32,000 nt of DNA from Pyrobaculum calidifontis JCM 11548 (GTDB lineage: Archaea > Thermoproteota > Thermoprotei > Thermoproteales > Thermoproteaceae), in contig NC_009073.1 in assembly GCF_000015805.1 (NCBI RefSeq), positions 60,001-92,000 of the forward strand, in the 5' to 3' direction. Shown here piece by piece: positions 16,572 through 32,000 of this stretch. Both the position numbers and the translations under genes were made by a program. Below the pieces are notes generated by a model. The model searched no databases and was not told the origin of the DNA. It saw only the letters and a list, made by a program, of their open reading frames with translations. How positions within the stretch are numbered: position 1 is the first letter of the stretch; every line of letters begins with the position of its first letter.

Positions 16572-17008
16572 AGTGGGTAATAGAGCTGGGCCTCTCGGCA
16601 ATGGTCGTGGGCCTTGTGTTCTACGTAGTATCCGCTGCGGCGCCGGCCCCAGCGTACATAGCCGCGGAGCGGGAGGTCACAGCCAACGCCTACTTCATAC
16701 TCCTCAGGCTGACCGCAGACCCCCACTTCATGAGCGCCCTGGAGAGGGCCGTGTGCCAAAACGACACGAAGGCGGTGGCCGCCATGTTGAACGCCACAAT
16801 CCCCGTGCGGTACTACTACAACTTCACGGTGTACCTAGACGACGAGAGGCCGCCCTCCTGCCTCGCGTGCGCCAAGTGGTCCCAGAGGCTTGCCACCGCG
16901 TCCAGGCCACGAGGCCTCCCGCAGAGCGGCGCCAGCGTGGCCGCCGTGTCGGCGCTCCTCAGCGACGGCACGAGGGTAAGGCTGACTCTCTCGCTGGATA
17001 GGCCATGA
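16568..17008 (+). CDS. Operon gene B: small pilin-like protein
   Basis: I chose ATG 16568 because it overlaps the stop of gene A as ATGA (16568-16571), like the other junctions. GTG 16562 is the alternative. The N-terminus is MKWVIELGLSAMVVGLVFYVV. Three sequons (NDT, NAT, NFT). Confidence 0.75.
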   Translation: MKWVIELGLSAMVVGLVFYVVSAAAPAPAYIAAEREVTANAYFILLRLTADPHFMSALERAVCQNDTKAVAAMLNATIPVRYYYNFTVYLDDERPPSCLACAKWSQRLATASRPRGLPQSGASVAAVSALLSDGTRVRLTLSLDRP

Positions 17009-20000
17009 GGGGCCAGCTGATACTCCTATCAGCCTTCATCGCCGCCGTGGCCGTGGCGGCGATAATGACGGCGCAAATCGCCCTACAGATGGGCTCCTAC
17101 TCCGCGGGGGCGAGGACTGGGTACGGCATATACGCAAAGGCGTGGCCCGAGGTGGTGGATCTCGCCGACTCCCACGTACTCCAAGCCACGGCAAAGGCCT
17201 CCGCCCAGCTCTCAACCGCAGCAACCACCACAGGGCTCTACGCGTGGCTAAGCGACCTTCCATACTACGCAGCGAAGTGGTACACCAACAGCTCGCTCTC
17301 GCTCCTAAAAACCGCGCTGTTGCCCATAGGGGCCCAGCTGGACTTCAAATACCGAATATTCTACACAGGCTTCAACGGCACCCTGGGCCCCTACCCACAG
17401 GCAGTGGAATACTCGCGGTGGAACCTAGACCCCGTTAGGAGCGGCTTTCTCACAATACCCGGCGCAACGCTCTACAGGCTTGTGGTCACCTGGCAAAGCG
17501 ACGACTACGGCGGCTACTACGTCGTCACATACGGAGCCCACGTCTCTGAGCCAGGCGCCGCTGGCGAGGTATACAACGTAGCCCTAGCAGACCTCTTGAG
17601 AAAGCTAGGCGAATTGGAAGAAGAGAAAATCAAGTCCAGCCTCTTCGCCTTCCTAGTAGACAGCCAGACGTGCAAACTCTACCAGCTACCCTGGTGGGCC
17701 GAGATAAAGAACTGCCCCCTCTGCCTACTACACGTCAGACTGCCCTCCTCTTCCTCCGACGAGGTGTCCGGCTTTAAGCTGGAGAAGGGCAAGGCGGTGG
17801 AGGTGCTCCTCGTCTTCATTCCAAATCTGCAAGGCGACGAGATACCGGTGCTGAAGTCTGGCCCATGTGCGAGCGGCCAGCCTATGCTGTCAGACATCGT
17901 GAAGGTGAACAAGGCCGTGAACAATGAGCCAAAGGCTGCGTTCGCACCGCAAGTAGGATACGAGCAGTATCCGTGGGGCGGCCGTCCAGCGGGGTACAGC
18001 GTTTCATACTACTGGGGCGCCGACGAGATAGCCTCATGGGGCAAAAGCGTAGTTAATACGCAAGGCTGTTATCATTCGCCAACGGGCGGAGTAATTAGAA
18101 ATGAGTATGGTGTTACGGTGGAAGACGTCCCAGACTTCCGCCCCGTTGCACGAGTCTACGCCAGGTACGCCGTTGGCACCACGAATTGGGCCTTTAATGT
18201 ATATTACAAATTGAACACTCCACAAGAAGATGATGATGATAATCTGAGAAATCTTGGCTGGCGTGGCTTCACAGTGGAGGCGCTGGTCAAGCCGCTTAAA
18301 GGCATAATAAGGCCCGCCAGGCTTGACCTCTACTATGCCTGGAACACCAACCCACCCCCACCCAGCAGACACCCCATATGCGCCTACCTTCTGGCAGTGC
18401 AGGCCGTTGTGCCAGCCATCGTGTGGACAAACTGGTACGCGGGGAACGGCGTGTGGAACGGGAGGACTTGGGATGATGCGGGTTCGCTAACTTATGGCAC
18501 ATCCTGGTACCTCTTCTCCATATCGGCGGACACCTCCAGAGTGGTATACAGCGTATACAGCTACAACACGACAAGGCCCCTCATACGGCTGGCCACTAAG
18601 ACGACCACCCACTCGTTTGGCGGCGACTGGAGGTTCTACATAGTGCTGGGAAGCGCCATAGTGGACAATCCCGCCTCCGGTACGCCTGAGGAGGCGTACT
18701 ACGCCTATGTGAGAGTTAGGCCCTGGGTAGACCCGCCCCCCTCCGTGTCCCTCGCGCCCGTGGACAAGACCCCCCTCGCCAGGCCGGGCAGAGTAGACGT
18801 GGTAGCACTGAGCGCAACCAAGGTGGAGGCAAACATAAACGCCAGCGGCAGTGTGGGTCTTGCCAACGTAGAGCGGCTCAACATTTCGCGCACAATAGGC
18901 CTAAGCGTCAAGGTGGTTGAGTGGAGCGTCGATGGGAGCAACCCCAACCAGGACAGATACCACTACAGAGTTCGGGTGGAGTCCACTATCCCCCGCGGCG
19001 CCGTGGCGGCCCAGTTCACCCTCTTCTACAGCCTGGGCTCCACCTACGTCAACACCACGTGCGTCGACAACGGCTTGTGCACAGCCACACTGGCTGAGTA
19101 CCTCGGCTACTCCGGCGGCAGGGATGTCGCCGAGTGGGAGGTGGAGTTCACCGTGCCCAAGAGGGCGAGCCACGCCATATTTGTCAATGTCTTCGGGTCT
19201 AAGGTGGCTGTCTCCACGGCCCAGCCCAAGCTCTACGCGCTGGGAGGCGGCACGACGTGGTACCTCATAAACGAGGGAGACGGCACCGGCGTCTTGTACA
19301 TACCGTGGAAGAAGTCTGGCCAGCAGGTTTGCACGCGCTGGCTGGCCGACTACAGCCCCAAGGACCCGAGGTTCATAGGCGTTTACGACGTTAAGTACAA
19401 GTGTCCCAACTGCGGCCCGTGCGAGAGCTGGACAGTCGTCCTCGTACCGCCTGGCTCGCTCGTGAGGCTAGACTTCACAGACTCGGTGTCACTCAGCGTC
19501 TTGAACACGTTTAGAGCACAGTGGCAACCGCCGATTTTGCCGACACCGCCGCTACCAAGCTGTCCTAACCCTATATACGTCAGATTCTACATACCCGGCA
19601 ACGCCAGTAAGGGTTACTATGTTATTTACGTACCGCCAAGCGATACGCAGGGCCCGCTTCTCACGTACGGCGGCGTAGATAGGCGTAGTGCTTATGCATA
19701 TTTAGGCGGTAGCTGGAAGGGGGTGAATCTCTACAGAGATGGGCCAAGCGGCGTTGGCGGATATTGGGTCAGACTTGAGGGGGATTTGACTAACAAAGCC
19801 GTCTTAGCGGTCTTCTGCCAAGGAGGGACATTTACGCCTCCTCAAGACCTCTTTAGGCCTCCCCAACAACCCTCCAGCTACTTCTGGACGCTCACTGGCC
19901 CTGTGGAAGTCACCTTACAACAAGCATCGCTGAATGAGTTCAAAGACGGGTTCACCGTGGTGTTTGGCCACTACAGGAGTGTGCCGAGTTGGGTGGCTCT

Positions 20001-20445
20001 GTACAACGGAACTTGGTCGGACTCAATGCTATCGTGTGCGTCTAACAGGAGAATGGTGGGCATACAGCAAATTGGCAGTCCAAAGTGGTGGTGGGACTAC
20101 GACGGCTTCTGCTACGACAGGCACATATGGGAGCTCTACGGCGCCGTGAGTGGCGAGCGCAACTTCACAATATCGGTGGCCAGGTCCGTCGTGTTGTACC
20201 AGATCTTCACGAGCGGCGCGTGGGGGTCGGGGCAGAACCCGTGGCTTAGGTCTTACCCCAACGTCGTGCCGTCCGACGGGCCGTCAGACCTCAGAAACAG
20301 GGCCATGACGGCGTTTCAGAGGGCGCGCGCCGGGGTCGCCGGCGGGCAGAGATACAGCGTTGCGGTTATACCCTTCACGTGGCCTCGGCCGTTCTTCTAC
20401 GTGGACTCTGGCACAGCGGTTAGGGGCCCGTTTGAGACGACATGA
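17005..20445 (+). CDS. Operon gene C: giant (1146 aa) extracellular protein with a class-III (prepilin-type) signal. Function unknown.
   Basis: The N-terminus is MRG|QLILLSAFIAAVAVAAIM, a basic residue and Gly followed by a hydrophobic helix. There are nine N-x-S/T sequons and it is rich in Trp, Tyr and Gly. It has Pro-rich linkers (VDPPPSVSLAP, PPILPTPPLPSCPNP) and a Cys cluster KCPNCGPCESW. ATGA overlaps occur at both ends. Confidence 0.9.
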   Translation: MRGQLILLSAFIAAVAVAAIMTAQIALQMGSYSAGARTGYGIYAKAWPEVVDLADSHVLQATAKASAQLSTAATTTGLYAWLSDLPYYAAKWYTNSSLSLLKTALLPIGAQLDFKYRIFYTGFNGTLGPYPQAVEYSRWNLDPVRSGFLTIPGATLYRLVVTWQSDDYGGYYVVTYGAHVSEPGAAGEVYNVALADLLRKLGELEEEKIKSSLFAFLVDSQTCKLYQLPWWAEIKNCPLCLLHVRLPSSSSDEVSGFKLEKGKAVEVLLVFIPNLQGDEIPVLKSGPCASGQPMLSDIVKVNKAVNNEPKAAFAPQVGYEQYPWGGRPAGYSVSYYWGADEIASWGKSVVNTQGCYHSPTGGVIRNEYGVTVEDVPDFRPVARVYARYAVGTTNWAFNVYYKLNTPQEDDDDNLRNLGWRGFTVEALVKPLKGIIRPARLDLYYAWNTNPPPPSRHPICAYLLAVQAVVPAIVWTNWYAGNGVWNGRTWDDAGSLTYGTSWYLFSISADTSRVVYSVYSYNTTRPLIRLATKTTTHSFGGDWRFYIVLGSAIVDNPASGTPEEAYYAYVRVRPWVDPPPSVSLAPVDKTPLARPGRVDVVALSATKVEANINASGSVGLANVERLNISRTIGLSVKVVEWSVDGSNPNQDRYHYRVRVESTIPRGAVAAQFTLFYSLGSTYVNTTCVDNGLCTATLAEYLGYSGGRDVAEWEVEFTVPKRASHAIFVNVFGSKVAVSTAQPKLYALGGGTTWYLINEGDGTGVLYIPWKKSGQQVCTRWLADYSPKDPRFIGVYDVKYKCPNCGPCESWTVVLVPPGSLVRLDFTDSVSLSVLNTFRAQWQPPILPTPPLPSCPNPIYVRFYIPGNASKGYYVIYVPPSDTQGPLLTYGGVDRRSAYAYLGGSWKGVNLYRDGPSGVGGYWVRLEGDLTNKAVLAVFCQGGTFTPPQDLFRPPQQPSSYFWTLTGPVEVTLQQASLNEFKDGFTVVFGHYRSVPSWVALYNGTWSDSMLSCASNRRMVGIQQIGSPKWWWDYDGFCYDRHIWELYGAVSGERNFTISVARSVVLYQIFTSGAWGSGQNPWLRSYPNVVPSDGPSDLRNRAMTAFQRARAGVAGGQRYSVAVIPFTWPRPFFYVDSGTAVRGPFETT

Positions 20446-21128
20446 CGTCGCTTGAGGTTCTGCTTCTAACGGCAATTTCGCTGATCATAATGTTCGCGGC
20501 TCTGCCGTACGTCATTTCAACGCTGTACGCCTCTATGGCGCCTCTGGAGTATAGAAATGCGGTGGCCTACGTGCTAGCCTTTGCCGACGGGCTTGAGGCA
20601 GACTTCGGGATGGCGGGGTCGCGGAAGTACTTCCCCCTGCCCAACTTCGTCTACGGGAGCTTCGGCGGCGTCAACCGCACTTACGCCATCGCAATCCTCT
20701 GCGGCGGCACGCCGATTAGCGGGTACAGCAGATGGAACGTGGTCGAGGTGTGGTACAACTCCACCTACCTAGTGGACGGGCCGCGCCTCTACAGAGGCGT
20801 CGACGGGGGCTTGATAGCGCTCGTGGGGGACACCATGGTGGCCGTCAACGCCACTCCGCCGGGAAGGCTGAAGCTATACTTCAGACCCTTCGTGGTAAAT
20901 GGCACGGAGGAAGTGTACATCTACTTCGTTTCGTCCAGGTTCTACGCCAGGGGGCGCTACTACCTGACGTATGAGGTAGGCGGGACGCTGGCGGTGGAGT
21001 CGTTACCGTGCAACAGCCGGCTTGAGATAAGGGTGAGCGACGGCGTGCGGCAGTGGAGCTATACGACGCCCAATGTGGTGAAGCGTGTGTACTTTGTAAA
21101 CCAGACGGTGTGGATTGAGCTGAGATGA
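20442..21128 (+). CDS. Operon gene D: pilin-like protein with Glu5
   Basis: 228 aa. The N-terminus is MTSLEVLLLTAISLIIMFAALPYV. Five sequons (NRT, NST, NAT, NGT, NQT). ATGA overlap with gene C at 20442-20445. Confidence 0.8.
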   Translation: MTSLEVLLLTAISLIIMFAALPYVISTLYASMAPLEYRNAVAYVLAFADGLEADFGMAGSRKYFPLPNFVYGSFGGVNRTYAIAILCGGTPISGYSRWNVVEVWYNSTYLVDGPRLYRGVDGGLIALVGDTMVAVNATPPGRLKLYFRPFVVNGTEEVYIYFVSSRFYARGRYYLTYEVGGTLAVESLPCNSRLEIRVSDGVRQWSYTTPNVVKRVYFVNQTVWIELR

Positions 21129-21688
21129 GGGGGTCTATCTCCACGTCGGCCTTGATCCTCTTTGTGGCATTTGCGGCGACTGTGGCCGTGTTGGCCTACA
21201 TTGTGGACATGAGGGCGCAGTGGGTGTTGGAGCGGGACGTGGAGTCGCTGGCCCAGTCGGCGGCGGACTTCGCCGCGTCTCAGATTAGGGACTCGCTTGC
21301 CGCGGCGAGTATACCCGGCGTAGTGGAGCTGAACCGCTCTCTGTTGGTGCCGCGGGACTTCTACGGCTTTGACACTGCGGGCGTCTCCATATGCGTGGGG
21401 AACAGAGGCGGCTTCCTCTATGTAAACGTCACGGCGTCGGGGACGAGGGGGCGGGGCTCGGCGACGGCGAAGGCCACGGCATGGCTGTACAATGTGACAA
21501 AGTGGGCCATAGACCACGGCCGGGTGGTGTACCTCGTGGGCCAGTACGGCCCCTGCGGCAGTCCCCCCTCCACCTGCTTCGCCACAGTGATCGTTGGCGC
21601 GAGGAAGGTTGCTGTGGTCAACTTGACGCGGCCTGGCTGCTCGGCAATGCTTGTGAAGTCCGGCGTGTGGATAATTCCGCGCGGCTAG
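21125..21688 (+). CDS. Operon gene E: pilin-like protein with a class-III signal (TadG-like N-terminus)
   Basis: 187 aa. The N-terminus is MRG|SISTSALILFVAFAATVAVLAYIVD. Four sequons (NRS, NVT, NVT, NLT). ATGA overlap with gene D at 21125-21128. Confidence 0.8.
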   Translation: MRGSISTSALILFVAFAATVAVLAYIVDMRAQWVLERDVESLAQSAADFAASQIRDSLAAASIPGVVELNRSLLVPRDFYGFDTAGVSICVGNRGGFLYVNVTASGTRGRGSATAKATAWLYNVTKWAIDHGRVVYLVGQYGPCGSPPSTCFATVIVGARKVAVVNLTRPGCSAMLVKSGVWIIPRG

Positions 21689-21748
21689 GCGCCGGCGGCT
21701 CGGCAGGTATTACTTGGGTGAGTTTTTAACTCCTGCGCGTCTAGGTGT

Positions 21749-23788
21749 GTGCTTGAGGTTGAGCTTGACCTTCTGAGGGATAAGATTAGGGAGTTTATTA
21801 CGTCGAATGAGAAGGTGTCGGACGAGGTCATCAACATGATTATTCAGCAGAAGAAGTCGCTTGAGGTGGACTTCCACGACATTTTGATGTTTGACAAGGG
21901 GCTAGCCGACTTGTTTATCGAGAGGCCTCGCCTCGTCTTGCCCGAGGCGGACAAGGTGGTCAAAGAGGTGGTGGAGGAGAAGGACCCGGAGACGGCTAAG
22001 AAGCTCCGTAGGTTCTACTTCAGGGTGAGGGGGTCGCCTCTGGTGGTTCCGCTCAGGAAGTTGAGGTCTGAGTACATTGGCCGCTTGATTAGGGTGGAGG
22101 GGATTGTGACTAGGCAGACTCCGCCTAAGCACTTCCTCTACAAGGCCCTCTACCGTTGTACTCAGTGCGGCTACGAGATTGAGCTTGTGCAAGAGCTGGA
22201 GCGGCACGTGGAGCCCCCGGCCAAGTGCCCCAGGTGCGGCGCGTCGAAGAGCTTCACTCTTGTGACTGAGCTGAGCCAGTACATCGATTGGCAGAAGGTG
22301 ATTGTGCAAGAGAGGCCTGAGGATCTGCCGCCTGGCCAACTGCCGAGGAGCGTCGAGGTCGTCCTCCTGGACGACTTGGTGGACTCTGTGAAGCCGGGCG
22401 ACATAGTCTCGCTGACCGGCATAGTGGACCTCACCTTGAGCGAGCTGAGGAAGGGGAGGCCCCCCATCGTCACCTCCTACATACAGGGGGTCCACGTGGA
22501 GACTACCAACAAGGAGCTTGTGGAGGAGATAACTAGCGAGGACGAGCAGAAGATCTTGGAGCTGTCTAGGAGGCCCGACGTGAGGGAGCTCATAGTGAGG
22601 TCCATTGCCCCCTCTATATACGGCTACGAGGAGATAAAGGAGGCCATCGCCTGCCTCCTCTTCGGCGGCAACGAGATAGTGTACCCAGACGGGGTGAGGG
22701 TGAGGGGCGACATCAACATACTGCTGATAGGCGACCCGGGAACCGCCAAGTCTCAGCTCCTCAAGTTCGTGGCCAAGATAGCCCCCCGCGCCGTCTACAC
22801 CACGGGCAAGGGGTCCTCTGCGGCTGGCCTCACCGCGGCCGTGGTGCGGGACAAGCTCACGGGGGAGTTCTACCTAGAGGCCGGCGCCCTCGTCCTCGCA
22901 GACAAGGGCGTGGCGGTGATCGACGAGATAGACAAAATGGACGCCAAGGACAGGGTAGCCCTCCACGAGGCCATGGAGCAGAACACCGTGTCTATAAGCA
23001 AGGCGGGCATCGTGGCCACTCTCAACGCGAGAGCCGCCGTCCTCGCCGCGGCCAACCCGGCCTTCGGCCGCTATTTGCCAAACCGCACTGTGGCAGAGAA
23101 CATCGACCTCCCCGTCTCCCTCCTCAGCCGCTTCGACCTCATCTTCGTGATCAGGGACGAGCCCCGGGAGGACTTCGACTCTGCAGTGGCCGGCCACATC
23201 TTAGACCTCCACTCGGGGAAGACGCCCGAGGCCTTTAGAGACGTCCTCAGGCCTGACTTCCTCCGCAAGTACATAATGTACGCCAGGAGGTACGTGAGGC
23301 CCATCTTGAGCGAGGAGGCAAAGGAGAGGATAAAGGCATTCTACCTGGAGATGAGGAGGCGCTACCAGGGGCCGGGCACGGCCATCGCCATAACTGCGCG
23401 CCAGCTAGAGGCGTTGATACGTTTGACCACCGCCGAGGCCAAGATGCGTCTCTCCCCAATAGCCACCGCCGAAGACGCCGAGAGGGCCATACGCCTCTAC
23501 CTAGCCTTCCTAAAGTCTGTGGGCATAGACGTGGAGTCCGGCGCCATTGACATAGACGCCATACTCACGGGAGTCCCCGCGTCCCGCCGCGAGGCCTACA
23601 TACGCGTAGTAGAGCTGTTAAAGAAGCTGGAGGAGATCGAGAAGGGGCCAGTCAAGGTAGACCTCTTAAAGGCGGAGGCAGAGAAGCTCGGCATACCCGG
23701 CCCCGAGGTGCAGCGCATAATCGACTTGCTCATACGCAACGGCGAGGCCTACACCCCGAGGCCCGGCTACATAAAGCGCGTAGCCTAG
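21749..23788 (+). CDS. mcm: MCM replicative helicase
   Basis: 679 aa. Has a zinc motif CTQCGYE...CPRCG, Walker A GDPGTAKSQLL, Walker B VAVIDEIDKM, the arginine finger region SRFDLIF and a C-terminal wHTH. GTG start, with TTTTTAA about 22 nt upstream. The length is standard, so there is no intein. Confidence 0.95.
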   Translation: MLEVELDLLRDKIREFITSNEKVSDEVINMIIQQKKSLEVDFHDILMFDKGLADLFIERPRLVLPEADKVVKEVVEEKDPETAKKLRRFYFRVRGSPLVVPLRKLRSEYIGRLIRVEGIVTRQTPPKHFLYKALYRCTQCGYEIELVQELERHVEPPAKCPRCGASKSFTLVTELSQYIDWQKVIVQERPEDLPPGQLPRSVEVVLLDDLVDSVKPGDIVSLTGIVDLTLSELRKGRPPIVTSYIQGVHVETTNKELVEEITSEDEQKILELSRRPDVRELIVRSIAPSIYGYEEIKEAIACLLFGGNEIVYPDGVRVRGDINILLIGDPGTAKSQLLKFVAKIAPRAVYTTGKGSSAAGLTAAVVRDKLTGEFYLEAGALVLADKGVAVIDEIDKMDAKDRVALHEAMEQNTVSISKAGIVATLNARAAVLAAANPAFGRYLPNRTVAENIDLPVSLLSRFDLIFVIRDEPREDFDSAVAGHILDLHSGKTPEAFRDVLRPDFLRKYIMYARRYVRPILSEEAKERIKAFYLEMRRRYQGPGTAIAITARQLEALIRLTTAEAKMRLSPIATAEDAERAIRLYLAFLKSVGIDVESGAIDIDAILTGVPASRREAYIRVVELLKKLEEIEKGPVKVDLLKAEAEKLGIPGPEVQRIIDLLIRNGEAYTPRPGYIKRVA

Positions 23789-23849
23789 CAAACACGGCCG
23801 GAGGCAAGAGTTAGCGATAAAAACTAAGCTCCGCCTAGCGGTGACGGGG

Positions 23850-24995
23850 CTAGTGTGCAGCGTGTTGAGAAGCGGCGCTTATGGGAGCGAGGTGTGCCGC
23901 CACTTCGCCTAAGACGGCCCTTCTCAAGTACTCGGCGGCTGTGTCGGTGAGGGAGGCGAGGTATTGGTCGACGAAGCTCGCTATGAGGAGCTTGGGGATG
24001 TCCTCTCTCCTTATACCGCGGGCGCGTAGGAGGAACTCCTTCTCCTCGTCCAGCGACGCATCGGCGGCGGAGTGGCGCGCGCCAGCCACCTCGCCCGTCT
24101 CCACGAGTATGATGGGCTGGGTGTTGGCGACGGCGCCTTCCCCCGCTATGAAGACCACACCCTCCACCGAGCTGTCGCTCATGACGCCTCGCTTAGTGAT
24201 CCTCCCCACGGCCCTCTGAGTGACAAAGGACTTGTCAGCCGCTACTGCGAAGAGCTTCGCCCGCCCGACACCCCTCGGCGCGTCGTTTATAAGCGATACG
24301 ACGTGGTCTATCCTGGCCTCCCCAAGGCCTAGCTCGAGGCCTATGGCCTCTGCAACCGCCTCTTCCCCAATGCGGTACTCCTCTCGCACAGCATTCATGA
24401 CGCCCCCCACGACCAGCGGCCTGGCCTGCACCGAGGAGGCCGTGTAGAATACTGAATGTACGTACTGCGGACCCTCCGCCTTAGACACGAGGACGTACTC
24501 CGTGGGGGCCCTGGCCCACCCCTCCACCACAACTGTGTGCATGGCCCCCCTCCCGTTGGACGCGTACACCACCACCGAGCCGCCGCCCTCCACCTCCAAC
24601 ACCACGTGGCTGGCCACGTGGCCCTCGCCGAGGGCCTCCAGCTTGACCACGAGCAGAGGGACGGCCCTCTTGACTCTCACCTTCACGGCCTCCTCAAGCG
24701 CCGCGGCGTGCAGGGCAAGGATCTTGCTGTCGAGGGGGGCCAGGTTGAACACTTCCCCCGCCGTCTCTACCTCCACTCCCTCGCACTCGCCAGCCCCGGC
24801 GAAGACCCCGTTCTGCACCACTACCTCGCAAGGCCCAAGCCGCGCCGAAACGGCGGGGGGCCTCCCCAGCGGCTTAAACCCCTCAAACTTAGACCAGTCA
24901 GTGTAGTACCTAACCGCGGGCGAGTCGGCGATCTCTTGCCAGGGTAGCTTCCCCGCCAGCTCTGCGCCCAACTCCTTCGCCCTCTTAAGATCCAT
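23850..24995 (-). CDS. SufB/SufD-family Fe-S cluster assembly protein
   Basis: The C-terminal beta-helix signature is PIILVETGEVAGARHSAADASLDEEKEFLLRARGI. I chose the start at ATG 24995 (MDLKRAKELG), about 20-27 nt downstream of AGTTAAATAG on the minus strand. GTG 25004 is the alternative. Confidence 0.75.
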   Translation of the reverse strand: MDLKRAKELGAELAGKLPWQEIADSPAVRYYTDWSKFEGFKPLGRPPAVSARLGPCEVVVQNGVFAGAGECEGVEVETAGEVFNLAPLDSKILALHAAALEEAVKVRVKRAVPLLVVKLEALGEGHVASHVVLEVEGGGSVVVYASNGRGAMHTVVVEGWARAPTEYVLVSKAEGPQYVHSVFYTASSVQARPLVVGGVMNAVREEYRIGEEAVAEAIGLELGLGEARIDHVVSLINDAPRGVGRAKLFAVAADKSFVTQRAVGRITKRGVMSDSSVEGVVFIAGEGAVANTQPIILVETGEVAGARHSAADASLDEEKEFLLRARGIRREDIPKLLIASFVDQYLASLTDTAAEYLRRAVLGEVAAHLAPISAASQHAAH

Positions 24996-25024
24996 AGCCC
25001 CCACTCGATGTGACTATTTAACTG

Positions 25025-25585
25025 CTACAGGAGTATGTAGAAGTTGTACTGCCTTCCCCTCCTCAAGATGCCCATTGAGAGGGGCGGCGACGGCGCCACC
25101 TCCGCCAAGTCGCCCAGCTCGTACTGGAAGTACACTCTAACGGCCCTATCCCCCCAGGGGACTTCCCACACCCCCCGCCCCACCTCGCGGCCCCGCCACT
25201 TTGGCGGCGCCCACACAGTGGCCACGACGCGCCGGGCGACCCTCTTCGCCTCTTTAAGCGCCTCCCCAGCCGCCTCGCGGGGCATGTGATGGAGGACAGC
25301 CACTAGGTAGGCCACGTCAAAGGCGCCGTCTCTGAAGGGGAGCCGTGTCGCCTCACACTCCACGGAGTCACCCCCTGGCAGAAGCCTCCTATCCAAGTCG
25401 CAGTGTACCACAAAGCCGTGAGCGAGCTCTATGTACAAGGGCTGGGCGCCGCGGCCTGCCCCCACGTCGAGGGCCCGTGGCCCAAGTTCTCCAAAGTCGG
25501 CCACTGGGAGGGGGCGCCGCCTAGTGGCCTCGTACTCTTCCCCAATGGCCAAGTAGGCCTCTCTAGCCCTCCTGGCCCACTCCAT
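25025..25585 (-). CDS. Class I SAM-dependent methyltransferase
   Basis: 186 aa. Motif I is ALDVGAGRGAQ, followed by an acidic loop VVHCDLD and FDVAYLVAVLHHM. Confidence 0.75.
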   Translation of the reverse strand: MEWARRAREAYLAIGEEYEATRRRPLPVADFGELGPRALDVGAGRGAQPLYIELAHGFVVHCDLDRRLLPGGDSVECEATRLPFRDGAFDVAYLVAVLHHMPREAAGEALKEAKRVARRVVATVWAPPKWRGREVGRGVWEVPWGDRAVRVYFQYELGDLAEVAPSPPLSMGILRRGRQYNFYILL

Positions 25586-25619
25586 GTCTAGACGCGTAGC
25601 GGCTCTTGCCGTCCTCCAC
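25561..25619. repeat. Left copy of the duplicated gene-junction segment
   Basis: Aligns with 26152-26213 at a constant offset of 591. By hand, 25561-25603 matches 26152-26194 at 35 of 43 positions, including an exact 13-mer CACTCCATGTCTA. After a 4-nt indel, CCGTCCTCCAC aligns with CCGCCTCCAC. Confidence 0.7.
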
Positions 25620-25667
25620 AGCGAAATACTGCCGAATTGGCGACGCCTTTCTGTCGGCGCGCCCTAG
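25563..25667 (-). pseudogene. Relic of a wHTH-protein C-terminus upstream of the methyltransferase start
   Basis: The minus-strand frame reads LGRADRKASPIRQYFAVEDGKSRYASRHGVGQEG*. This parallels the intact C-terminus ...LGKLAREGYVEAVGEGRYALRHGVC* of the gene at 26163..26456. It is closed by an upstream TAA (25668-25670). Confidence 0.4.
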
Positions 25668-25962
25668 TTAAAAGCGGGAGTTCAAAGACAGTACACAAAC
25701 TGACACCGAATGGTTCAAATTTACACAACACGTCACAGCTGAAGCTTGCCGCTTGCCCGCTGGTGGCCGTTGAGCATAAAGAAGACATATGTTTCAGTGA
25801 ACTCTCCTTCACTTCTACACTATCTACACTCGTTTTTAAACTGTCGTTTGCCGTACGGCGACATGTATCTGTGCTTCAGCACGAAGAAGTTGGTCAATTA
25901 TTCAGTGGAAGTGATGAAACTGATTGCAAGCAAGCGTCTTTGCGTTTCTCGGGGGACTCATT

Positions 25963-26031
25963 GGGGGAGGGGATGATGAATGGGTGTTGAAGGGACAGAT
26001 GCCCGCGGTCTGGCTCACTGACCCCTCCCCC
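25963..26031 (+). ncRNA. C/D-box sRNA candidate closed by a 10-bp terminal stem
   Basis: GGGGGAGGGG (25963-25972), AUGAUGA (C box, 25973-25979), 38 nt, CUGA (D box, 26018-26021), CCCCUCCCCC (26022-26031). The flanks are perfect reverse complements. The 38-nt C-to-D distance equals 12+4+3+7+12. The internal D'/C' boxes are degenerate. Confidence 0.65.
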
Positions 26032-26059
26032 TCTCCATATAAACTATTTGTTAGAAAAA

Positions 26060-26064
26060 TTTTT
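26060..26064 (+). terminator. T5 run, a possible archaeal termination signal downstream of the sRNA candidate
   Basis: AAAAATTTTTCT lies about 30 nt after the 3' stem. Archaeal RNA polymerase terminates at oligo-T. Confidence 0.25.
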
Positions 26065-26143
26065 CTCCGCTGACCCGCCACCCTACTGATGTCGGTTCTG
26101 ACCGTTCCAGAGTTGATAGATCCCCTGGCTACAATGTGTTGAC

Positions 26144-26176
26144 TCAAGTTTCTTTAGCCCTCTTAGCACACTCCAT
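26144..26176 (-). pseudogene. Decayed copy of the methyltransferase 5' end
   Basis: The minus strand reads ATG GAG TGT GCT AAG AGG GCT AAA GAA ACT TGA, giving MECAKRAKET*. The real gene reads ATG GAG TGG GCC AGG AGG GCT AGA GAG GCC, giving MEWARRAREA. Confidence 0.55.
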
Positions 26177-26213
26177 GTCTAAGCGCATAGCGCCCCTCCC
26201 CCACCGCCTCCAC
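26152..26213. repeat. Right copy of the duplicated gene-junction segment
   Basis: See the left copy. This copy covers the 3' end and stop of the wHTH gene plus the pseudo-start above. Confidence 0.7.
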
Positions 26214-26456
26214 GTATCCCTCTCTCGCCAGTTTCCCAAGCGCATAGGCCACAGCCCCCTCGTCTGCGCCCACCGCGGCCGCCGCCTCCTCCGCGGACAG
26301 AGGGCCCTTGGCCAAGGCGGCGAGCAACTTGGCCTCGAGCTCCGTCTCCTCTCTCAGAGAGGCCTTCACCGGCTTGAAGAGCCTAAAGGCTAGGTACAGC
26401 ACCGCCGCCACGACGGCCGCGAGCAGTAGGACAATCCACACGTGGCGCAAAGCCAT
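26163..26456 (-). CDS. Small membrane-anchored winged-helix (MarR/ArsR-like) protein
   Basis: 97 aa. It has an N-terminal TM helix VWIVLLLAAVVAAVLYLAF, then LLAALAKGPLSAEEAAAAVGADEGAVAYALGKLAREGYVEAVGEGRYAL, which looks like a helix-turn-helix plus wing. Confidence 0.6.
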   Translation of the reverse strand: MALRHVWIVLLLAAVVAAVLYLAFRLFKPVKASLREETELEAKLLAALAKGPLSAEEAAAAVGADEGAVAYALGKLAREGYVEAVGEGRYALRHGVC

Positions 26457-26478
26457 ATATTTATATCCATTTCAAGGA

Positions 26479-27738
26479 GTGCTCCGCCTCCTACCCCCAG
26501 CGGCGGTTCTCGCGGCCGGCCTCCTCATAAGGGCATACTTTGCCCCCTTCACCGTGGGGAGCGACGTGGTGCAGTTCGCCGGATTTGCAGACAGCGTGCA
26601 CAGACACGGACTCTGCTTCTACAAATACGCGGGGGGAGAAAACGCGGAGGCAGAGGGGTGGGCGTACCCGTGGCCATTCCCCTACGGCCCGCTGGCCGTT
26701 GCCCTCTTAGCCGTTGCCAGGCTCCTCGCGCCCGGCGCAGTGGAGAAGGTGGGCGAGTGGGTGTACGCGCCCCCGGACTGGATAGTCGCCTCCAAGGCGT
26801 TGTTCATAGCCTTCGACACCGCGGTTGCAGTCCTCATCTACTCTAACGGGGCGGGGTGGCCCACTTGGCGGAGGACAGCCGCCATGGCCCTCTACTACTT
26901 AAACCCCGCCGTGATCTACACCTCGGCCATATACGGCATGTTGGACCCACTGCCAGCCGCGCTCCTCATCGCCGCTCTGAGGCTGAGGGGCGGCTTCTGG
27001 GCGGGGGCCCTTCTCGGCTTAGCCGCCGCCACGAAGCTAAATGCGGCTCCGGCTGCGCTTTTCGCCGCACTCGCGTCGCCGTCGCTGAGGCTCGCCGCGG
27101 GGTTTGCGGCAGGGGCGCTCGTCCCCGTAATGCCCTTCGAGGCGGCGTGCCCCGGTAGCCTCTTGGCGTGGGTCCACGCGGCGCTGTCGGTGGCGTCGCC
27201 CGGCTACAACCCCCCTGTGGTGTACAGCTTCAATGGGGTGACTACGCTGGCCACGTATCTGCATGAGAAGACCGGCGGAGACTACTTATGGGCCATCCGT
27301 GCGTGGTGGGTCGCGGCCGCGGCGGCCTACGCCCCCCTGCTCCTCGTAGCGAGACGGGCCGGTCCGCTGGCCTCTGCCTACTTGGCGTACTTAGCCTACA
27401 CGGCCACCTACTGGCGTGTCAACTACCAATACTTCCTCCTCCTGGCGGGCCTCGCCGCGTTGCACATAGCCGCGCCCGGCGTCAGCAGAGCAGAGAAGGC
27501 GGTTTCCCTGGCGCACTTGGCGGCCGTCGCCCTTTGGCCCTTCCTCTACCCCGTCAGCTGGTGGGCCCGCGTCCATGTGAAAGAGCCCAACGAGGCGGTG
27601 GCAACGGCGCTAGACGCTGTGTCGCTAAAGTTGTTGGACCCCGAGGTATACGTGGCGTACTCCCTCGCGTTAACGGCCCTGGCGTATGTGGCGCTTGCGG
27701 CGCACTACCGCCGGTGGTTTAAGCGTATAAACCCCTAA
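26479..27738 (+). CDS. Polytopic membrane protein, GT-C-fold glycosyltransferase-like (DUF2029/PMT_2-like)
   Basis: From ORF 26308..27738, trimmed to GTG 26479 (VLRLLPPAAVLAAGLLIRAY) because the upstream part is antisense to the wHTH gene. The TATA-like ATATATTTATAT (26455-26466) sits just upstream. There are about 10 or more hydrophobic segments, with an early conserved loop FTVGSDVVQFAGFADS. Confidence 0.6.
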   Translation: MLRLLPPAAVLAAGLLIRAYFAPFTVGSDVVQFAGFADSVHRHGLCFYKYAGGENAEAEGWAYPWPFPYGPLAVALLAVARLLAPGAVEKVGEWVYAPPDWIVASKALFIAFDTAVAVLIYSNGAGWPTWRRTAAMALYYLNPAVIYTSAIYGMLDPLPAALLIAALRLRGGFWAGALLGLAAATKLNAAPAALFAALASPSLRLAAGFAAGALVPVMPFEAACPGSLLAWVHAALSVASPGYNPPVVYSFNGVTTLATYLHEKTGGDYLWAIRAWWVAAAAAYAPLLLVARRAGPLASAYLAYLAYTATYWRVNYQYFLLLAGLAALHIAAPGVSRAEKAVSLAHLAAVALWPFLYPVSWWARVHVKEPNEAVATALDAVSLKLLDPEVYVAYSLALTALAYVALAAHYRRWFKRINP

Positions 27739-27750
27739 AGTCTCACCGGC

Positions 27751-29196
27751 GTGGAGAAGCCGTTGCGATTTATTCGGGCCGCCAGCGGCGTACACGTCGT
27801 GGCCGTCATGACGCACCCCATGCCTTGCCCAGGCCGTTGCACCTTCTGCCCAACTGCCAGAGACGCCCCCAAGTCCTACCTCTCCGACAGCCCAGTGGTG
27901 CTGAGGGCCAAGAGGAGCGGCTACGACCCCTACCTCCAGACCGCCGGCAGAGTCAAAGTCTACCTTGAAAACGGCCACGTGCCCAGCAAAGTAGAGGTGG
28001 TGGTGATGGGGGGCACCTTCTCCGCCCTGCCCCGGGGGTACAGGGAGTGGTTTGTGGCAAACGTCTACAAGGCGCTCAACGACTACCCCAACTGGGCGGC
28101 CAAGGCCGCGGAGTCCCCCTCGCTGGAGTTTGAGCAACTGCGCAACGAGGCCGCCCTCCTGAGAATGGTGGCGCTAGCCGTGGAGACTCGGCCGGACTAC
28201 GTCGACGAGGGGGAGGTGGACTTCCTCCTCCAGCTGGGCGTCACCAGGGTGGAGCTGGGGGTGCAGTCCATCTACGACGACGTCTTGGCTAAGGTGAAGA
28301 GGGGCCACGGGGCCAGGGAGGCCGCGGAGGCCACTGCCCTTCTAAAGGACGCGGCGTATAAGGTGTGCTACCACCTAATGCCCGGCCTCCCCGGAAGCGA
28401 CCCAGACCGGGACCTCGAGATGTTCAAGACAGTGTTCTCCGACCCGGCCTACATGCCAGACTGCGTCAAGATATACCCCCTATACGTCGTGCCGGGGACT
28501 GAGCTCTACGAGCAGTGGAGGCGCGGCGGGTACAAGAGCTACGACGAGGAGACTTGGCTAGAGCTCTTGGCCAAGATCTACGCCTCTGTCCCCAGGTGGG
28601 CCAGAGTCATGAGACTCGGCCGCGACATACCTCTACACCACGTGGTAGATGGCCCAAGGTGGGGCAACATGCGGCAGGTGGTGTTGAAAAAGATGGCCGA
28701 GGTGGGCCTCCCCTGCGTAGAGATTAGGTGCCGCGAGGTTGGGGTCAAGTTAGCCAACGGGGCGCCGGTGGAGCCCGGGCCAATTGAGATCAAGAGGGCG
28801 GTCTACGAGGCGTCTGGCGGCGTCGAGGTGTTTTTAGAAGCGGTGGGGCCCGACGACACTCTATACGGCATACTAAGGCTTAGGATGCCCCACGCCCCCA
28901 GGCGCCCAGAGCTCAGCCGCAGGACGGCCCTAGTGAGAGAGTTGCATGTGTACGGCCCGGCGGTGCCCGTGGGGGAGAGGGGAATATGGTGGCAACACAT
29001 GGGCATTGGGCGGAGACTCATGGCGGCGGCAGAGGAGGTAGCCAGAGAATTCGGCGCGCGCAAGGTGGCTGTCATATCTGGCGTGGGGGCGCGGGAGTAC
29101 TACAGAAAGCTTGGCTACGAGAGGTGTGGGCCCTACATGTGCAAGCCCCTAGAGAAGCCGCTGGGGCATGCAGACGAGGAGCTCATAACGGTGTAG
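27751..29196 (+). CDS. elp3: Elp3-family radical-SAM/GNAT tRNA modification enzyme
   Basis: 481 aa. Has the radical-SAM cluster region MPCPGRCTFCP, then RVELGVQSIYDDVL and CYHLMPGLPGSD. The C-terminal GNAT region is WQHMGIGRRLMAAAEEVARE. Confidence 0.85.
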   Translation: MEKPLRFIRAASGVHVVAVMTHPMPCPGRCTFCPTARDAPKSYLSDSPVVLRAKRSGYDPYLQTAGRVKVYLENGHVPSKVEVVVMGGTFSALPRGYREWFVANVYKALNDYPNWAAKAAESPSLEFEQLRNEAALLRMVALAVETRPDYVDEGEVDFLLQLGVTRVELGVQSIYDDVLAKVKRGHGAREAAEATALLKDAAYKVCYHLMPGLPGSDPDRDLEMFKTVFSDPAYMPDCVKIYPLYVVPGTELYEQWRRGGYKSYDEETWLELLAKIYASVPRWARVMRLGRDIPLHHVVDGPRWGNMRQVVLKKMAEVGLPCVEIRCREVGVKLANGAPVEPGPIEIKRAVYEASGGVEVFLEAVGPDDTLYGILRLRMPHAPRRPELSRRTALVRELHVYGPAVPVGERGIWWQHMGIGRRLMAAAEEVAREFGARKVAVISGVGAREYYRKLGYERCGPYMCKPLEKPLGHADEELITV

Positions 29197-29226
29197 AGGC
29201 TTATAAATCCCCTAAATGGGCGACGC

Positions 29227-30228
29227 GTGTCTCTGCCGCCCCCGGCAGGGGTAATCAAGCTAGACCAAAACGAGGTCCCAATACCCCCGCCCCAGCATGT
29301 GGTAGAGGCGGCGGCGCAGGCCTTGGCAGTGGCCAACTGGTATCAGCCAGCTGCGCTGTACGACGAAGTCAGAGCCCTCTACGCCGAATACGCCGGCGTG
29401 GCCCCCGCCCACGTGTGGCTCTTCCCAGGAGCAGACGACTTCTTCGAATACATACTCCACAGGGCAAGGAAGGTGGCGGTTGTGTCGCCCACATACTTCC
29501 TTTTTGAAGACCAGGCGAGGTTCCACGGTGTGGAGCTCCTCCAGACCCCGCTCAGGGGGGAGGAGTTCAAGCTAGACCTCGCCGAGTTTCTCTCCGCGGC
29601 CAAGAGGGCAGACGCCGTGTATATAGACAACCCAAACAACCCCACGGGGCAACTCCTCCTACGGCCGAAGGAAGTGGAGGAGGTCCTGGCCCTGGGGAAG
29701 CCCACGGTGGTAGACGAGGCATACTTCGAGTTCTCCGGCGTCACCGTCGCGCAGTTGGCCGAGGCGTGGCCGAATCTTGCAGTGGTGAGGACGATGTCTA
29801 AGGCCTTCCTCCTCGCCGGTATGAGGGTGAGCCCAGTCATCGTAGGCGCGGGGTACAGGCTCCACTACAACACCGTGAGGTTCAGAGTGTCTCTCTCCTC
29901 CCTCGCCGCGGCCCGCGCCGCATTGTACAACAGAGGCTACGTGGGGGAGGTGGTGAAGATTGTGAAAGAGGGCGCCGCCTACCTCCGGGAGGAGCTCGCC
30001 CGACTGGGGATAAAGGCATGGCCCACATACGCCAACTTCATCTTAGTCAAGGGCCCCCCTGGCCTCGCCGCCGTGCTGAGGGAGTACGGCGTGTGGGTGA
30101 GAGACGAGGAGCAGAGGCTGGGCCCCGGCCACGTGCGAATAACAGTGGGCACGCCTGAGATAAACGCCCAGCTCGTCAGAACGCTGAAGACTGTGCTTAA
30201 AGCTTCTCTACCTCAGCCGTCAGCTTAG
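29227..30228 (+). CDS. hisC: Histidinol-phosphate aminotransferase-like class I/II PLP aminotransferase
   Basis: 333 aa. Contains IKLDQNEVPIPPP (compare LxxNENP), YIDNPNNPTG and the PLP-lysine context RTMSKAFLLAGMRVS. GTG start, with CTTATAAATC about 24 nt upstream. Confidence 0.75.
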   Translation: MSLPPPAGVIKLDQNEVPIPPPQHVVEAAAQALAVANWYQPAALYDEVRALYAEYAGVAPAHVWLFPGADDFFEYILHRARKVAVVSPTYFLFEDQARFHGVELLQTPLRGEEFKLDLAEFLSAAKRADAVYIDNPNNPTGQLLLRPKEVEEVLALGKPTVVDEAYFEFSGVTVAQLAEAWPNLAVVRTMSKAFLLAGMRVSPVIVGAGYRLHYNTVRFRVSLSSLAAARAALYNRGYVGEVVKIVKEGAAYLREELARLGIKAWPTYANFILVKGPPGLAAVLREYGVWVRDEEQRLGPGHVRITVGTPEINAQLVRTLKTVLKASLPQPSA

Positions 30229-32000
30229 CCAGCCTCCTCCGCCTAATAAACCAGACGAGAAACGCGGCGCCGGCCGCCCCGCCCCCTACAGCCACCAGGG
30301 GGACCGGGTCTAGGCTCCACACAGCCTCAAAAGTGGTAGACGCGACGACAACGGGCATCTGTGGATAGTTGTAGACGGTGCCAGTGGCCTTGTCCCGCCA
30401 GCCGGCGAACACCCAGTGCAAAGGCGGCGGGGACCAGACGTCCATGGGCGTGGGCACGACGCCGGCCACGCCGCCCTCGTCTACCCACATCTGTGGGGGC
30501 ACTTGGCCGTAGGCCGAGGTGAAGTAGACGAGGTACTGCCTCTTCGTGGTGTACGTTATATTCAGCGGTCTGTCCACCCGCACTACCAGCGGCACCTGCG
30601 AGCCGGCGGGTCGCCCGTTTATGACCCACTGGGCGAGCACTGTGCGGACGTTGCCCCTGGACTCTATGGGCGTGGGGATAGACACAGTGACGTTGGCCCC
30701 CCTCTCCACCCACGTGGCGTTAGGCGGATTGGCCACGTATGCCGGCGGCGCCGTCCACACTCTGTACTGAACCACGTACTTCGGCCTAAGCGAGAGCGGG
30801 CCTTGCACAGTCCGCACAACCTCAAGCGCCCGCTCCTCAGGCGTAAACTCCAGCCCAGCCCACCCCACAAAGGCCAGCCTAGTCCCATTCCTAAAGTCGT
30901 AGAACTCAGGCGCCTTAAACACCACGGTAGACCCCACGTCGGCCCACAGCTGCGTAGAGCCGTTGACAGAGGCAGGCCAGGAGGTGGAGACCAGGGCCTG
31001 CGGCACGTACACCCCCTGCGCGGAGACCGGGTAGGCGGAGACCTCGGGCGCGGGGCCGGAGGCCACCACGTTCCCAGAGCCGTCGAAGACCACCACTAGG
31101 TCGAGCCTAAGCCTAGCAGTGGCGTTTATCTGGACGTACGGCGGTAGCTCCACCCTGTAAACTGCCTTAACGGACACCGGCTTATCCACGTTCACCGTCA
31201 GAGAGGGCGTCGGCACGTCCAGCCTCCTCCCATCCACCACCCAGCCCACCAGCCGCAAGACGCCGGTCGACACAGGCGAGTTGTAGACGGGGATCTCCAC
31301 CCTAGGCTCGGCGTAAAACGCCGCAGGGCCGCTAGCCCAGGCCGGCCCTCTGACAAGGCCCGCGGGCTCCACAGAGATGCGGTACTCCAAGGCGTACCGC
31401 ACTGGCACATGCTCCGCCAAGTCGCCAGTGACCTCGAGCGTGACGTTCCTCAGAGGCCTACACCTCACGTCTCCAAGGTACTTAAACTGGGGCTCCACCG
31501 ATATCTTGCTTACTGGCACCAACACGTCCTGCGCCCCAGACACCGAGTAGGCGTAGACGGCCTCGCCTGCCCTCACCACAACGTCCACCGGGAGGCATTG
31601 CTGTGGCGCGTCGGGGACAATTCTAACGCTGGCAAGTCTAACCGGCGTGACGGAGTCCCAAGTCTCGTAGGCGAGGGCCCTCCCGTTAAACGACGCGGCA
31701 AGAGAAGTGACCGGCCTGCCCGCGGAGATCCGCGCCACCTCCCTCCCCTCTTTAAACACCACTACGTGTCCCCCGAGAGTTCCCACGGCGACTATAGACC
31801 CGTCCCCCGAGGAGTAGACGGAGAGCGGGGGAGCGGGGAGGGGAGCCCTCCACGCGACGGACCCCCTCCTAATGGCCACAAGCTCGCCGAAGGTCCCCAC
31901 GAAGACCCACTCCCCATTCTGACTAACGGCAAAGGGCACCCGAGGCGTGTCAATGCCGTACTCCACTGCGACGGCGGGAGCAAACTCTAGCCCATACGGC
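30197..32000 (-). CDS. Large cell-surface protein: beta-propeller-like N-terminal repeats, four InlB-B-repeat-like (F/L-x-GW) modules and a C-terminal TM anchor. Probably 5'-truncated by the window edge.
   Basis: The ORF track starts at GTG 31966, but the frame stays open to nt 32000 (...PYGLEFAPAVAVEYGID). The 31966 form has no signal peptide and no upstream TATA. Repeats are LVGWVVDGRR, FVGWAGLEF, LAQWVINGRP and FAGWRDKATGTVY. There are seven N-x-S/T sequons. The C-terminus is VAVGGGAAGAAFLVWFIRRRR. Confidence 0.75.
   Translation of the reverse strand, partial: PYGLEFAPAVAVEYGIDTPRVPFAVSQNGEWVFVGTFGELVAIRRGSVAWRAPLPAPPLSVYSSGDGSIVAVGTLGGHVVVFKEGREVARISAGRPVTSLAASFNGRALAYETWDSVTPVRLASVRIVPDAPQQCLPVDVVVRAGEAVYAYSVSGAQDVLVPVSKISVEPQFKYLGDVRCRPLRNVTLEVTGDLAEHVPVRYALEYRISVEPAGLVRGPAWASGPAAFYAEPRVEIPVYNSPVSTGVLRLVGWVVDGRRLDVPTPSLTVNVDKPVSVKAVYRVELPPYVQINATARLRLDLVVVFDGSGNVVASGPAPEVSAYPVSAQGVYVPQALVSTSWPASVNGSTQLWADVGSTVVFKAPEFYDFRNGTRLAFVGWAGLEFTPEERALEVVRTVQGPLSLRPKYVVQYRVWTAPPAYVANPPNATWVERGANVTVSIPTPIESRGNVRTVLAQWVINGRPAGSQVPLVVRVDRPLNITYTTKRQYLVYFTSAYGQVPPQMWVDEGGVAGVVPTPMDVWSPPPLHWVFAGWRDKATGTVYNYPQMPVVVASTTFEAVWSLDPVPLVAVGGGAAGAAFLVWFIRRRRLAKLTAEVEKL

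Follow-up and report, generated by a model that had tools for sequence, protein, structure and literature searches.

A non-coding spacer in Pyrobaculum calidifontis JCM 11548 as a probable scar of an integrative mobile element in a former gene overlap

How did more than half a kilobase of non-coding DNA come to lie between two genes that overlap in related archaea, with both genes still in place? The question is raised by a locus of Pyrobaculum calidifontis JCM 11548, in a stretch of 32,000 nucleotides (nt) that was analyzed as a whole (to be referred to as the window). A small winged-helix regulator gene (wHTH) and a methyltransferase gene (MT) are separated here by a spacer of 549 nt. The first-pass annotation of this DNA, made from its letters alone, had described the spacer as an insertion into a former stop/start overlap of the two genes, bracketed by a duplicate of their junction. 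The comparisons presented here point to the scar of an integrative mobile genetic element (MGE) that was later whittled down, a reading to which we assign a probability of about 0.6.

The junction of the two genes is present twice. A repeat search finds a direct repeat (25560-25617 and 26151-26208 in the window) with a spacing of 591 nt and 76% identity. The Smith-Waterman score between 25520-25700 and 26100-26280 is 49, compared to 17.2 ± 2.4 for dinucleotide shuffles, with a maximum of 31 (n = 1000). In the core of the repeat, 35 of 42 positions are identical, and the exact 13-mer CACTCCATGTCTA is found at 25578 and 26169. On translation, the right (wHTH-side) copy gives a wHTH tail that ends in GEGRYALRHGVC and an MT head that stops after MECAKRAKET, and the left (MT-side) copy gives the MT head MEWARRAREA and a wHTH tail that ends in DGKSRYASRHGVGQEG. 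The diverged repeat of the first-pass annotation, with its 591-nt offset and its 13-mer, is thus borne out, and all four peptides quoted there are reproduced.

The site without the spacer is found in a metagenomic relative (contig L009, ENA ERZ1684501). This contig is 95-96% identical to the window over 9.7 kb, in two blocks (21717-25601 and 26151-32000), and the spacer is the sole large indel within the aligned region. The two BLAST blocks overlap by exactly 42 nt, which makes 42 nt the best estimate for the length of the duplicated piece of chromosome (25560-25601 and 26151-26192). The extra 16 nt of the 58-nt repeat align better with mobile-element copies, described below, than with the wHTH tail. 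L009 has a single junction, where wHTH ends in RHGVGQEG and extends 23 nt into MT. A direct overlap of wHTH and MT is also present in four more distant genomes (L010, P. oguniense, L006, and Thermoproteus AZ2). Therefore, the overlapping junction is ancestral, and the spacer is inserted DNA with 42 nt of the duplicated junction at each end. Judged from these alignments, DNA was inserted into the former wHTH/MT overlap and the junction was duplicated, with each gene keeping its working end, much as the first-pass annotation had proposed.

The two copies of the junction have changed in different places since then. The ancestral wHTH tail, ending in RHGVGQEG, is exactly the relic that is seen in the left copy. 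The wHTH form in relatives has 100 amino acids (aa), and the other variants in the 90% cluster of this protein (11 of 11) end in GVGQEG, GVGREG, GVGQKG or GVGQED; the form in JCM 11548 is three residues shorter. Compared to L009, the right copy has five differences, all of them from G/C to A/T. Four of these are located within the 18 nt at 26151-26168, past the shared core, where the DNA no longer encodes MT, and the change from CAG to TAA in this copy costs wHTH its three residues. Such changes would be as expected of unconstrained DNA that drifts toward lower G+C in this genome. Ahead of the core, where its sequence has ceased to encode wHTH, the left copy has a 2-nt difference from L009 (GCGCT to GCGTC). 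From the core onward it is identical to L009, and its MT part is unchanged. The type of wHTH tail (GVC or GVGQEG at the end) was considered as a marker of the empty site and was rejected, as insert-bearing strains retain the long tail.

The spacer has a G+C content of 49.4%, compared to 59.6% for the window and 60-70% for the neighboring genes. The low G+C content in the earlier description therefore holds for the spacer, but its figure of 40-45% is true only of the four lines that were counted, as single 60-nt lines range from 40 to 62%. The spacer has no credible open reading frame (ORF), in agreement with that description, and none of its ORFs has a match to a Pfam or PHROG family. A coding spacer was rejected on this basis and because the lengths of the indels that separate the spacer variants do not keep to multiples of three. 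A structured RNA gene was rejected as well. Rfam gives no match to the spacer at the gathering thresholds and only a 12.6-bit chance match at E ≤ 10, a tRNA search of the spacer finds none, and the folding of the two strands is no better than that of shuffles, with z-scores of 0.10 and 1.10. The spacer has no matches in phage and plasmid collections, and four pattern scans and protein scans of IMG/VR had no matches either. A metagenome pattern scan found one chance match only, in a glycosidase gene of a low-GC organism. No terminal inverted repeats were found at the spacer ends by the repeat search.

Homologs of the spacer, with 67-90% identity, are present in L027, L030, L035 (two copies), L036, L037, L012, L031, L032 (two copies), and L033. 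The contigs that have exactly the wHTH or MT protein of the window are mostly 100% identical copies of the locus, and sister strains with longer inserts were reached via other members of the wHTH protein cluster. The inserts at the same junction in these strains are ~1.1 kb (L027/L028 and L036), ~1.17 kb (L029/L030), ~1.75 kb (L035), and at least 1.4 kb (L037) in length. From wHTH to MT, they contain the wHTH-side junction copy, an open reading frame (orfX), an AT-rich promoter region, the spacer homolog, and the MT-side junction copy. The orfX gene is located on the opposite strand and is intact, truncated or frameshifted. In L035 and L037, a second unit of spacer and junction is found in tandem, giving three copies of the junction (tandem-unit regions 893-2715 in L035 and 514-1960 in L037). 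The two spacer units of L035 are only ~70% identical.

In the window, as well as in unit A of L035 and unit 2 of L037, a junction copy is joined straight to the inner spacer (AGA followed by AACTTGAG). As orfX and its promoter region are missing at this direct joint, the spacer of the window is a deletion derivative of a longer insert. Another contig, L038, matches the L027/L036 insert at 93% identity across the promoter and orfX, and its sequence runs past both chromosomal joints into other DNA, indicating that a longer version existed recently. What the first-pass annotation missed, on the evidence of these contigs, is that the spacer probably derives by deletion from a longer MGE-related insert, at a site that is polymorphic among strains.

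Two of the contigs show additional irregularities. In L027 (1207-2478), only 235 aa are left of the ELP3-like gene and 92 aa of the GT87 gene, pointing to a deletion adjoining the locus. In L013 (1029-1405), the MT-side repeat is followed by an inverted piece of MT (window 25445-25069), probably an assembly artefact.

The existence of the spacer family also bears on another proposal in the first-pass annotation, that of a tandem duplication followed by decay. In this case, the wHTH-MT region would have been duplicated with a unit of about 591 nt (roughly the junction and MT), and the inner copy would have decayed. The offset of 591 nt is close to the combined length of MT and the junction (561 + 30 nt), and short ordered blocks shared with MT (ACTTG, CATTG, GGGGA) had been listed. 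However, beyond the repeat the spacer is unlike MT, wHTH and their orthologs. Searches of the spacer against the window and all loci, by blastn with 7-nt words and by tblastx, give chance matches only, and extension tests anchored on L009 find no similarity to the flanking genes past the repeat. The in-register identity at an offset of 591 is 26/110 and 34/110 on the two sides, compared to 26.5 and 29.5 in shuffles. The first of these values applies to the right-hand ~100 nt of the spacer, for which a patchy similarity to the 5′ region of MT had been claimed. This stretch, with the listed blocks in it, aligns instead with spacer-family copies from other contexts, which are mobile-element copies. 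Moreover, the spacer family adjoins unrelated genes in other contigs, and the longer alleles hold an unrelated gene on the opposite strand. Within the reach of these tests, a decayed tandem duplication is hardly credible, and neither it nor the patchy similarity is upheld.

The sequence of the spacer is conserved to different extents in its family. The best-conserved part, at 88%, is a block with an inverted G-box/C-box pair (Table 1), and the DNA between the two boxes is not AT-rich. The conserved blocks also include TTTAAAA/TTTTAAC boxes. These blocks, including the G-box/C-box pair, are kept in all ten copies, which would be consistent with a functional chromosomal element under selection, for example a non-coding RNA gene, a regulatory region, or an origin captured from a plasmid. 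Control regions beside plasmid rep genes often contain origins, and the MCM gene, located 1.8 kb away, would make a captured origin notable. On the other hand, the Rfam and folding results described above show nothing beyond chance at any threshold, divergence over most of the spacer equals or exceeds the synonymous rate and indels are frequent, and the site is empty in L009 and holds inserts that vary from 0.55 to 1.75 kb in size. Four origins of P. calidifontis have been mapped by marker frequency, with proposed positions at ~0.3, 514, 951 and 1688 kb (PMC4009838). The published origins are listed at other coordinates and gene pairs (PMC4009838), which is an indirect argument against an origin here as the window is not placed on that scale. 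Overall, a selected chromosomal element is an improbable explanation of the spacer.

The contigs in which the spacer homolog is found away from wHTH and MT suggest where the inserted DNA came from. In L032, L033 and L034, the homolog is located upstream of orfX. In L033, the N-terminal fragment (296 aa) of a tyrosine integrase lies ~140 nt beyond the outer end of the spacer homolog, in divergent orientation. This fragment has an HTH_3 domain and an ETGAR box, and it matches phrog_5127 (E = 2.6e-16) and phrog_1 (2.7e-9). The outer end of the spacer that is next to the integrase in L033 is the same end that abuts the MT-side junction copy in the chromosome. In other contigs (L032/L033), the counterpart of the spacer is thus a homologous non-coding region that separates the integrase gene from orfX. 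The orfX family has 12 variants of ~114 aa, with 80% mean column identity. It has no match in Pfam or NCBIfam, and its AlphaFold model (pLDDT 39) is too poor for a structure search. In L031, orfX overlaps by 4 nt the gene for an 899-aa protein that contains a Walker A motif and a PBP2-like winged-helix C-terminal end, and that has only weak P-loop, SF3-helicase and PBP2 matches.

The L032 contig contains in addition the genes for a 704-aa secreted protein and a 186-aa membrane protein, both without annotation. It also has an inverted second copy of the spacer together with an inverted 53-aa scrap of the 899-aa gene (1270-2061), and the element itself has therefore been rearranged. The contig names in ERZ1684501 give a coverage of 23.8 for L032 (NODE_180) and 190 for the host-like L009 (NODE_16). 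Based on these observations, the spacer family probably represents the control region between the integrase gene and orfX of an integrative element, the mobility of the contigs being deduced from gene content, the integrase, and coverage. An undescribed family of Pyrobaculum integrative elements, made almost wholly of unannotated genes, is offered as a lead.

A direct connection between the JCM locus and such an element is found in L012 (JGI 3300014768, 1-1468). This sequence is 100% identical to window 26586-26022, then ~78% identical, and then continues into a promoter and a gene, in the right half of the contig, whose product shares 91.6% identity with the 704-aa protein of L032. Either the contig is a chimera formed during assembly at a G-rich block common to both sequences, or it represents a genuine recombinant of the chromosomal remnant with an incoming element. 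A word-indexed protein search missed the homolog of this L012 ORF, the L032 product on an ENA contig, in spite of the 91.6% identity, and negative results from that search need care.

The scar of an MGE could have been produced in the following way. In the ancestral state, wHTH would run 23 nt into MT, and the pair would probably be transcribed together. DNA of an MGE with the layout of integrase gene, non-coding control region, orfX, and gene for a large Walker A protein would then enter the overlap and come to be flanked at each end by ~42 nt of junction sequence, such that wHTH would keep its stop and MT its start. Subsequently, the insert would be shortened. The sister strains would retain the start of the Walker A gene, or orfX in whole or in part, along with the promoter region of orfX and the control region (1.1-1.75 kb), and JCM 11548 would retain only 549 nt of the control region. 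The junction copies would drift where they are no longer read, and the change from CAG to TAA would shorten wHTH in JCM 11548. The direct repeats would allow unequal recombination, leading to the tandem arrays of L035 and L037, and could also give the empty site of L009 by precise loss.

As to the mode of entry, we infer that the whole element was integrated by its integrase and then suffered deletion. In crenarchaeal integrated elements, the attachment (att) sites are 29-69 bp long, with a median of 45 bp, and the 3′-distal parts of protein genes are integration targets in archaea, as reported for Thaumarchaeota (PMC6563490). The 42-nt length of the repeat fits these crenarchaeal att lengths, which favors entry by an integrase. 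Entry by an integrase is also favored by the MT-side joint, which is identical in all the strains and in both spacer types and is located beside the integrase gene, within a few tens of nt of the expected attP. A further resemblance to attP, between the outer end of the L012/L032/L033 copies and the empty site, is convincing by eye; it is no better than that of shuffles and was dropped.

Several observations weigh against integration of a whole element. The insert in the window has no integrase or other MGE gene, and the sister strains hold only orfX or fragments. No sampled related contig carries the copy of the junction expected of the element (attP), with only a few variants of the element among those sampled. 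L031 and L032 are putative MGE contigs, judged by gene content, the integrase and the coverage values, and the IMG/VR, phage and plasmid searches were empty. The insert corresponds to an inner part of the MGE layout, as one of its joints coincides with the 5′ end of the 899-aa gene or falls just within it, and whole-element integration therefore needs an extra large deletion that ends right at the junction copy. In addition, the three classes of wHTH-side joints nest poorly, as the class with the longest MGE segment (L030) has the shortest native junction copy.

An entry without an integrase would accommodate some of these points. By microhomology-mediated capture, ~1.15 kb of MGE DNA, from the control region through orfX into the first ~50 nt of the gene that follows, could have been acquired through template switching or illegitimate recombination in replication or repair, with the polymerase rejoining ~40 nt back and duplicating the junction. 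Capture would account for an insert that is an internal fragment rather than an attP-bounded unit, for an arbitrary length of the duplication, and for short G-rich matches at the joints, and it agrees with the lack of an attP copy of the junction in the sampled contigs. At the MT-side joint, GGCGA(A/G)GG matches GGGGAGGGG, a short and imperfect match between the MGE and the target. At the wHTH-side joint, GGGGATGAAGTAGCC matches GGGCTAGAGAGGCC, and the L030/L035 copy, GGGCTGAAGAAGTCC, looks hybrid. However, capture leaves unexplained that the MT-side joint lies beside the integrase, and the constancy of this joint across strains and the fit of the repeat to crenarchaeal att lengths also speak against it. 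The microhomologies are G-rich and so short that they are beyond statistics. We regard capture as rather unlikely, and somewhat more weight is given to the integrase route with later deletion.

The alleles at the site are more diverse than a single shortened insert. They include three classes of wHTH-side joints, two types of spacer that are 70-77% identical, the tandem units, and L012, in which the JCM locus is joined to an L032-like element. These could be understood, tentatively, if the wHTH/MT stop/start overlap were a recurrent attachment site for an undescribed family of Pyrobaculum integrative elements, and the alleles reflected several independent integrations as well as recombination of resident remnants with incoming elements. 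The layout of this family would be an HTH-integrase, a conserved control region, orfX, the 899-aa Walker A protein and the 704-aa secreted protein. We consider such repeated use of the site doubtful, though possible.

The relationships among the strains bear on the age of the insertion. Among the five strain types, the flanking genes show differences of 5-9%, with a synonymous divergence (dS) of 0.12-0.26, and the empty-site contig L009 nests among the insert-bearing strains. An insertion specific to JCM 11548 after its split from L009 was considered at first, and was revised in view of the longer inserts in sister strains, among which L009 is nested. Identity among the spacer copies is 71-90%, with a mosaic pattern, as in L027, whose spacer is 81.6% identical to the MGE-like L032c1 copy as compared to 71.8% to the JCM copy. 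Two histories fit these data. In one, a single old insertion drifted almost neutrally, underwent unequal recombination between the repeated junctions, and was precisely lost in L009. In the other, there were several entries, together with exchanges with incoming elements. The polarity of the empty state in L009 is itself deduced.

In whichever way the MGE remnant was acquired, the two genes on its sides remain under constraint. MT is intact (186 codons) in every strain, with an omega of 0.10-0.26 against all the strains, including between insert-bearing ones, and the omega for wHTH is 0.04-0.20. The intact state of MT and the purifying selection on it imply that the gene is still required and has to be expressed. 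In the 77-nt block next to MT (Table 1), the mean pairwise identity among five MT-adjacent spacers is 84-86%, compared to 55-74% for most of the spacer, and the TTTTAAC box in this block is present in 9/9 copies. The first-pass annotation had remarked that MT is separated from any obvious TATA box. There is indeed none at -26, but the conserved TTTTAAC box is present 83 nt upstream of the MT start. Our preferred guess is that MT is expressed from this outward-facing TATA-like box, carried in by the remnant as a putative promoter. Read-through from wHTH is the alternative.

Table 1. Features of the wHTH/MT locus (positions in the window)
Feature	Positions	Strand	Remarks
MT, class I S-adenosylmethionine-dependent methyltransferase gene, 186 aa	25025..25585	-	PF08241, E = 9e-12; ABO07526.1 / WP_011848783.1
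Left (MT-side) junction copy	25560..25601	-	Live MT start ATG 25585-25583; displaced ancestral wHTH tail ending in RHGVGQEG, stop 25565-25563
MT-proximal spacer block, 77 nt	25600..25676	-	Includes CGCTTTTAACTAGGGCGCGCCGAC (25653-25676), candidate TATA-like box 83 nt upstream of MT ATG
Non-coding spacer, 549 nt	25602..26150	.	Member of a repeated non-coding family; elsewhere the region between integrase gene and orfX operon
Conserved inverted G-box/C-box pair	25958..26036	-	GGAGAGGGGGAGGGG 26022-26036, CATCATCCCCTCCCCCAATGA 25958-25978; nearly invariant in 10/10 family copies
Right (wHTH-side) junction copy	26151..26192	-	wHTH last codons and new stop TAA 26165-26163; dead MT start ATG 26178-26176 (MECAKRAKET, then stop)
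wHTH (TrmB/MarR-like), 97 aa	26163..26456	-	Hydrophobic segment at N-terminus; WP_226951971.1

The locus is flanked by a SufBD-like gene and MCM on one side, and by a GT87 glycosyltransferase gene and an ELP3-like radical-SAM gene on the other. The mechanical ORF for GT87 starts at 26308, an antisense over-extension through wHTH. In relatives, a protein of 419 aa is called, which corresponds to a GTG start at 26479. This GTG and the wHTH ATG at 26456 are only 22 nt apart, across ATATATTTATAT. Just upstream of MCM, the region 15240-21717 contains ORFs of 443, 148, 1146, 228 and 187 aa without a Pfam match. The alignment with L009 (95-96%) ends at 21717, beyond which other genes, likewise unannotated, are found in L009. 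The region is a second strain-variable island.

The arrangement at the wHTH/MT junction resembles that of archaeal elements integrated by tyrosine recombinases (SSV-type and pNOB8-type, in Crenarchaeota) in several respects. Direct repeats of ~45 bp flank foreign DNA of lower G+C content, the empty site is present in a close relative, the DNA enters at the 3′-distal end of a protein gene that is restored by the duplicated segment, and a tyrosine integrase gene is located beside the homologous end in related contigs. In comparison, the insert in the window has only 549 nt, carries no integrase or other gene, and is an internal fragment of the layout. Its target is a 23-nt overlap of two genes, such that both a stop and a start are restored, and the attP copy of the repeat is not found among the sampled contigs.

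The e14 element and phage 21 integrate at the 3′ end of E. coli icd and bring a phage-borne substitute for that end. As in icd, the gene end is present twice at the wHTH/MT junction, with one copy in use and the displaced copy drifting. However, both copies in the window look chromosomal, matching the empty site over 42 nt except for later G/C to A/T changes, and the site belongs to two genes at once. Transposons, miniature inverted-repeat transposable elements and casposons likewise bracket the inserted DNA with a short direct repeat of their target. The insert in the window differs from these in having no terminal inverted repeats, transposase or Cas1, and 42 nt is far above the usual 2-15 nt. 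The 4-nt overlap of orfX (114 aa) with the gene for a ~900-aa Walker A protein with a winged-helix-like C-terminus is reminiscent of the pRN-type plasmids of Sulfolobales, in which a small regulator gene overlaps a ~900-aa primase-helicase gene. Membership in this group is not supported, as neither orfX nor the 899-aa protein has a match to plasmids, the PDB, or the Pfam prim-pol or CopG families.

As a genomic scar with no demonstrated function, the remnant is of a known kind in a neat setting, revealing no new kind of system. It explains why the annotation of the P. calidifontis reference genome has a puzzling gap of 0.58 kb and a regulator gene of reduced length. It also provides a clean natural case in which an insertion into a stop/start overlap is tolerated, as the duplicated overlap uncouples two co-transcribed genes and kills neither. 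The series of strains, with an empty site, inserts of 0.55, 1.1, 1.2 and 1.75 kb, and tandem forms, displays stages in the decay of an insert. To our knowledge, few plasmids or integrative elements have been described for Pyrobaculum, and the locus points to a family of integrative elements in this genus that is made almost entirely of unannotated genes.

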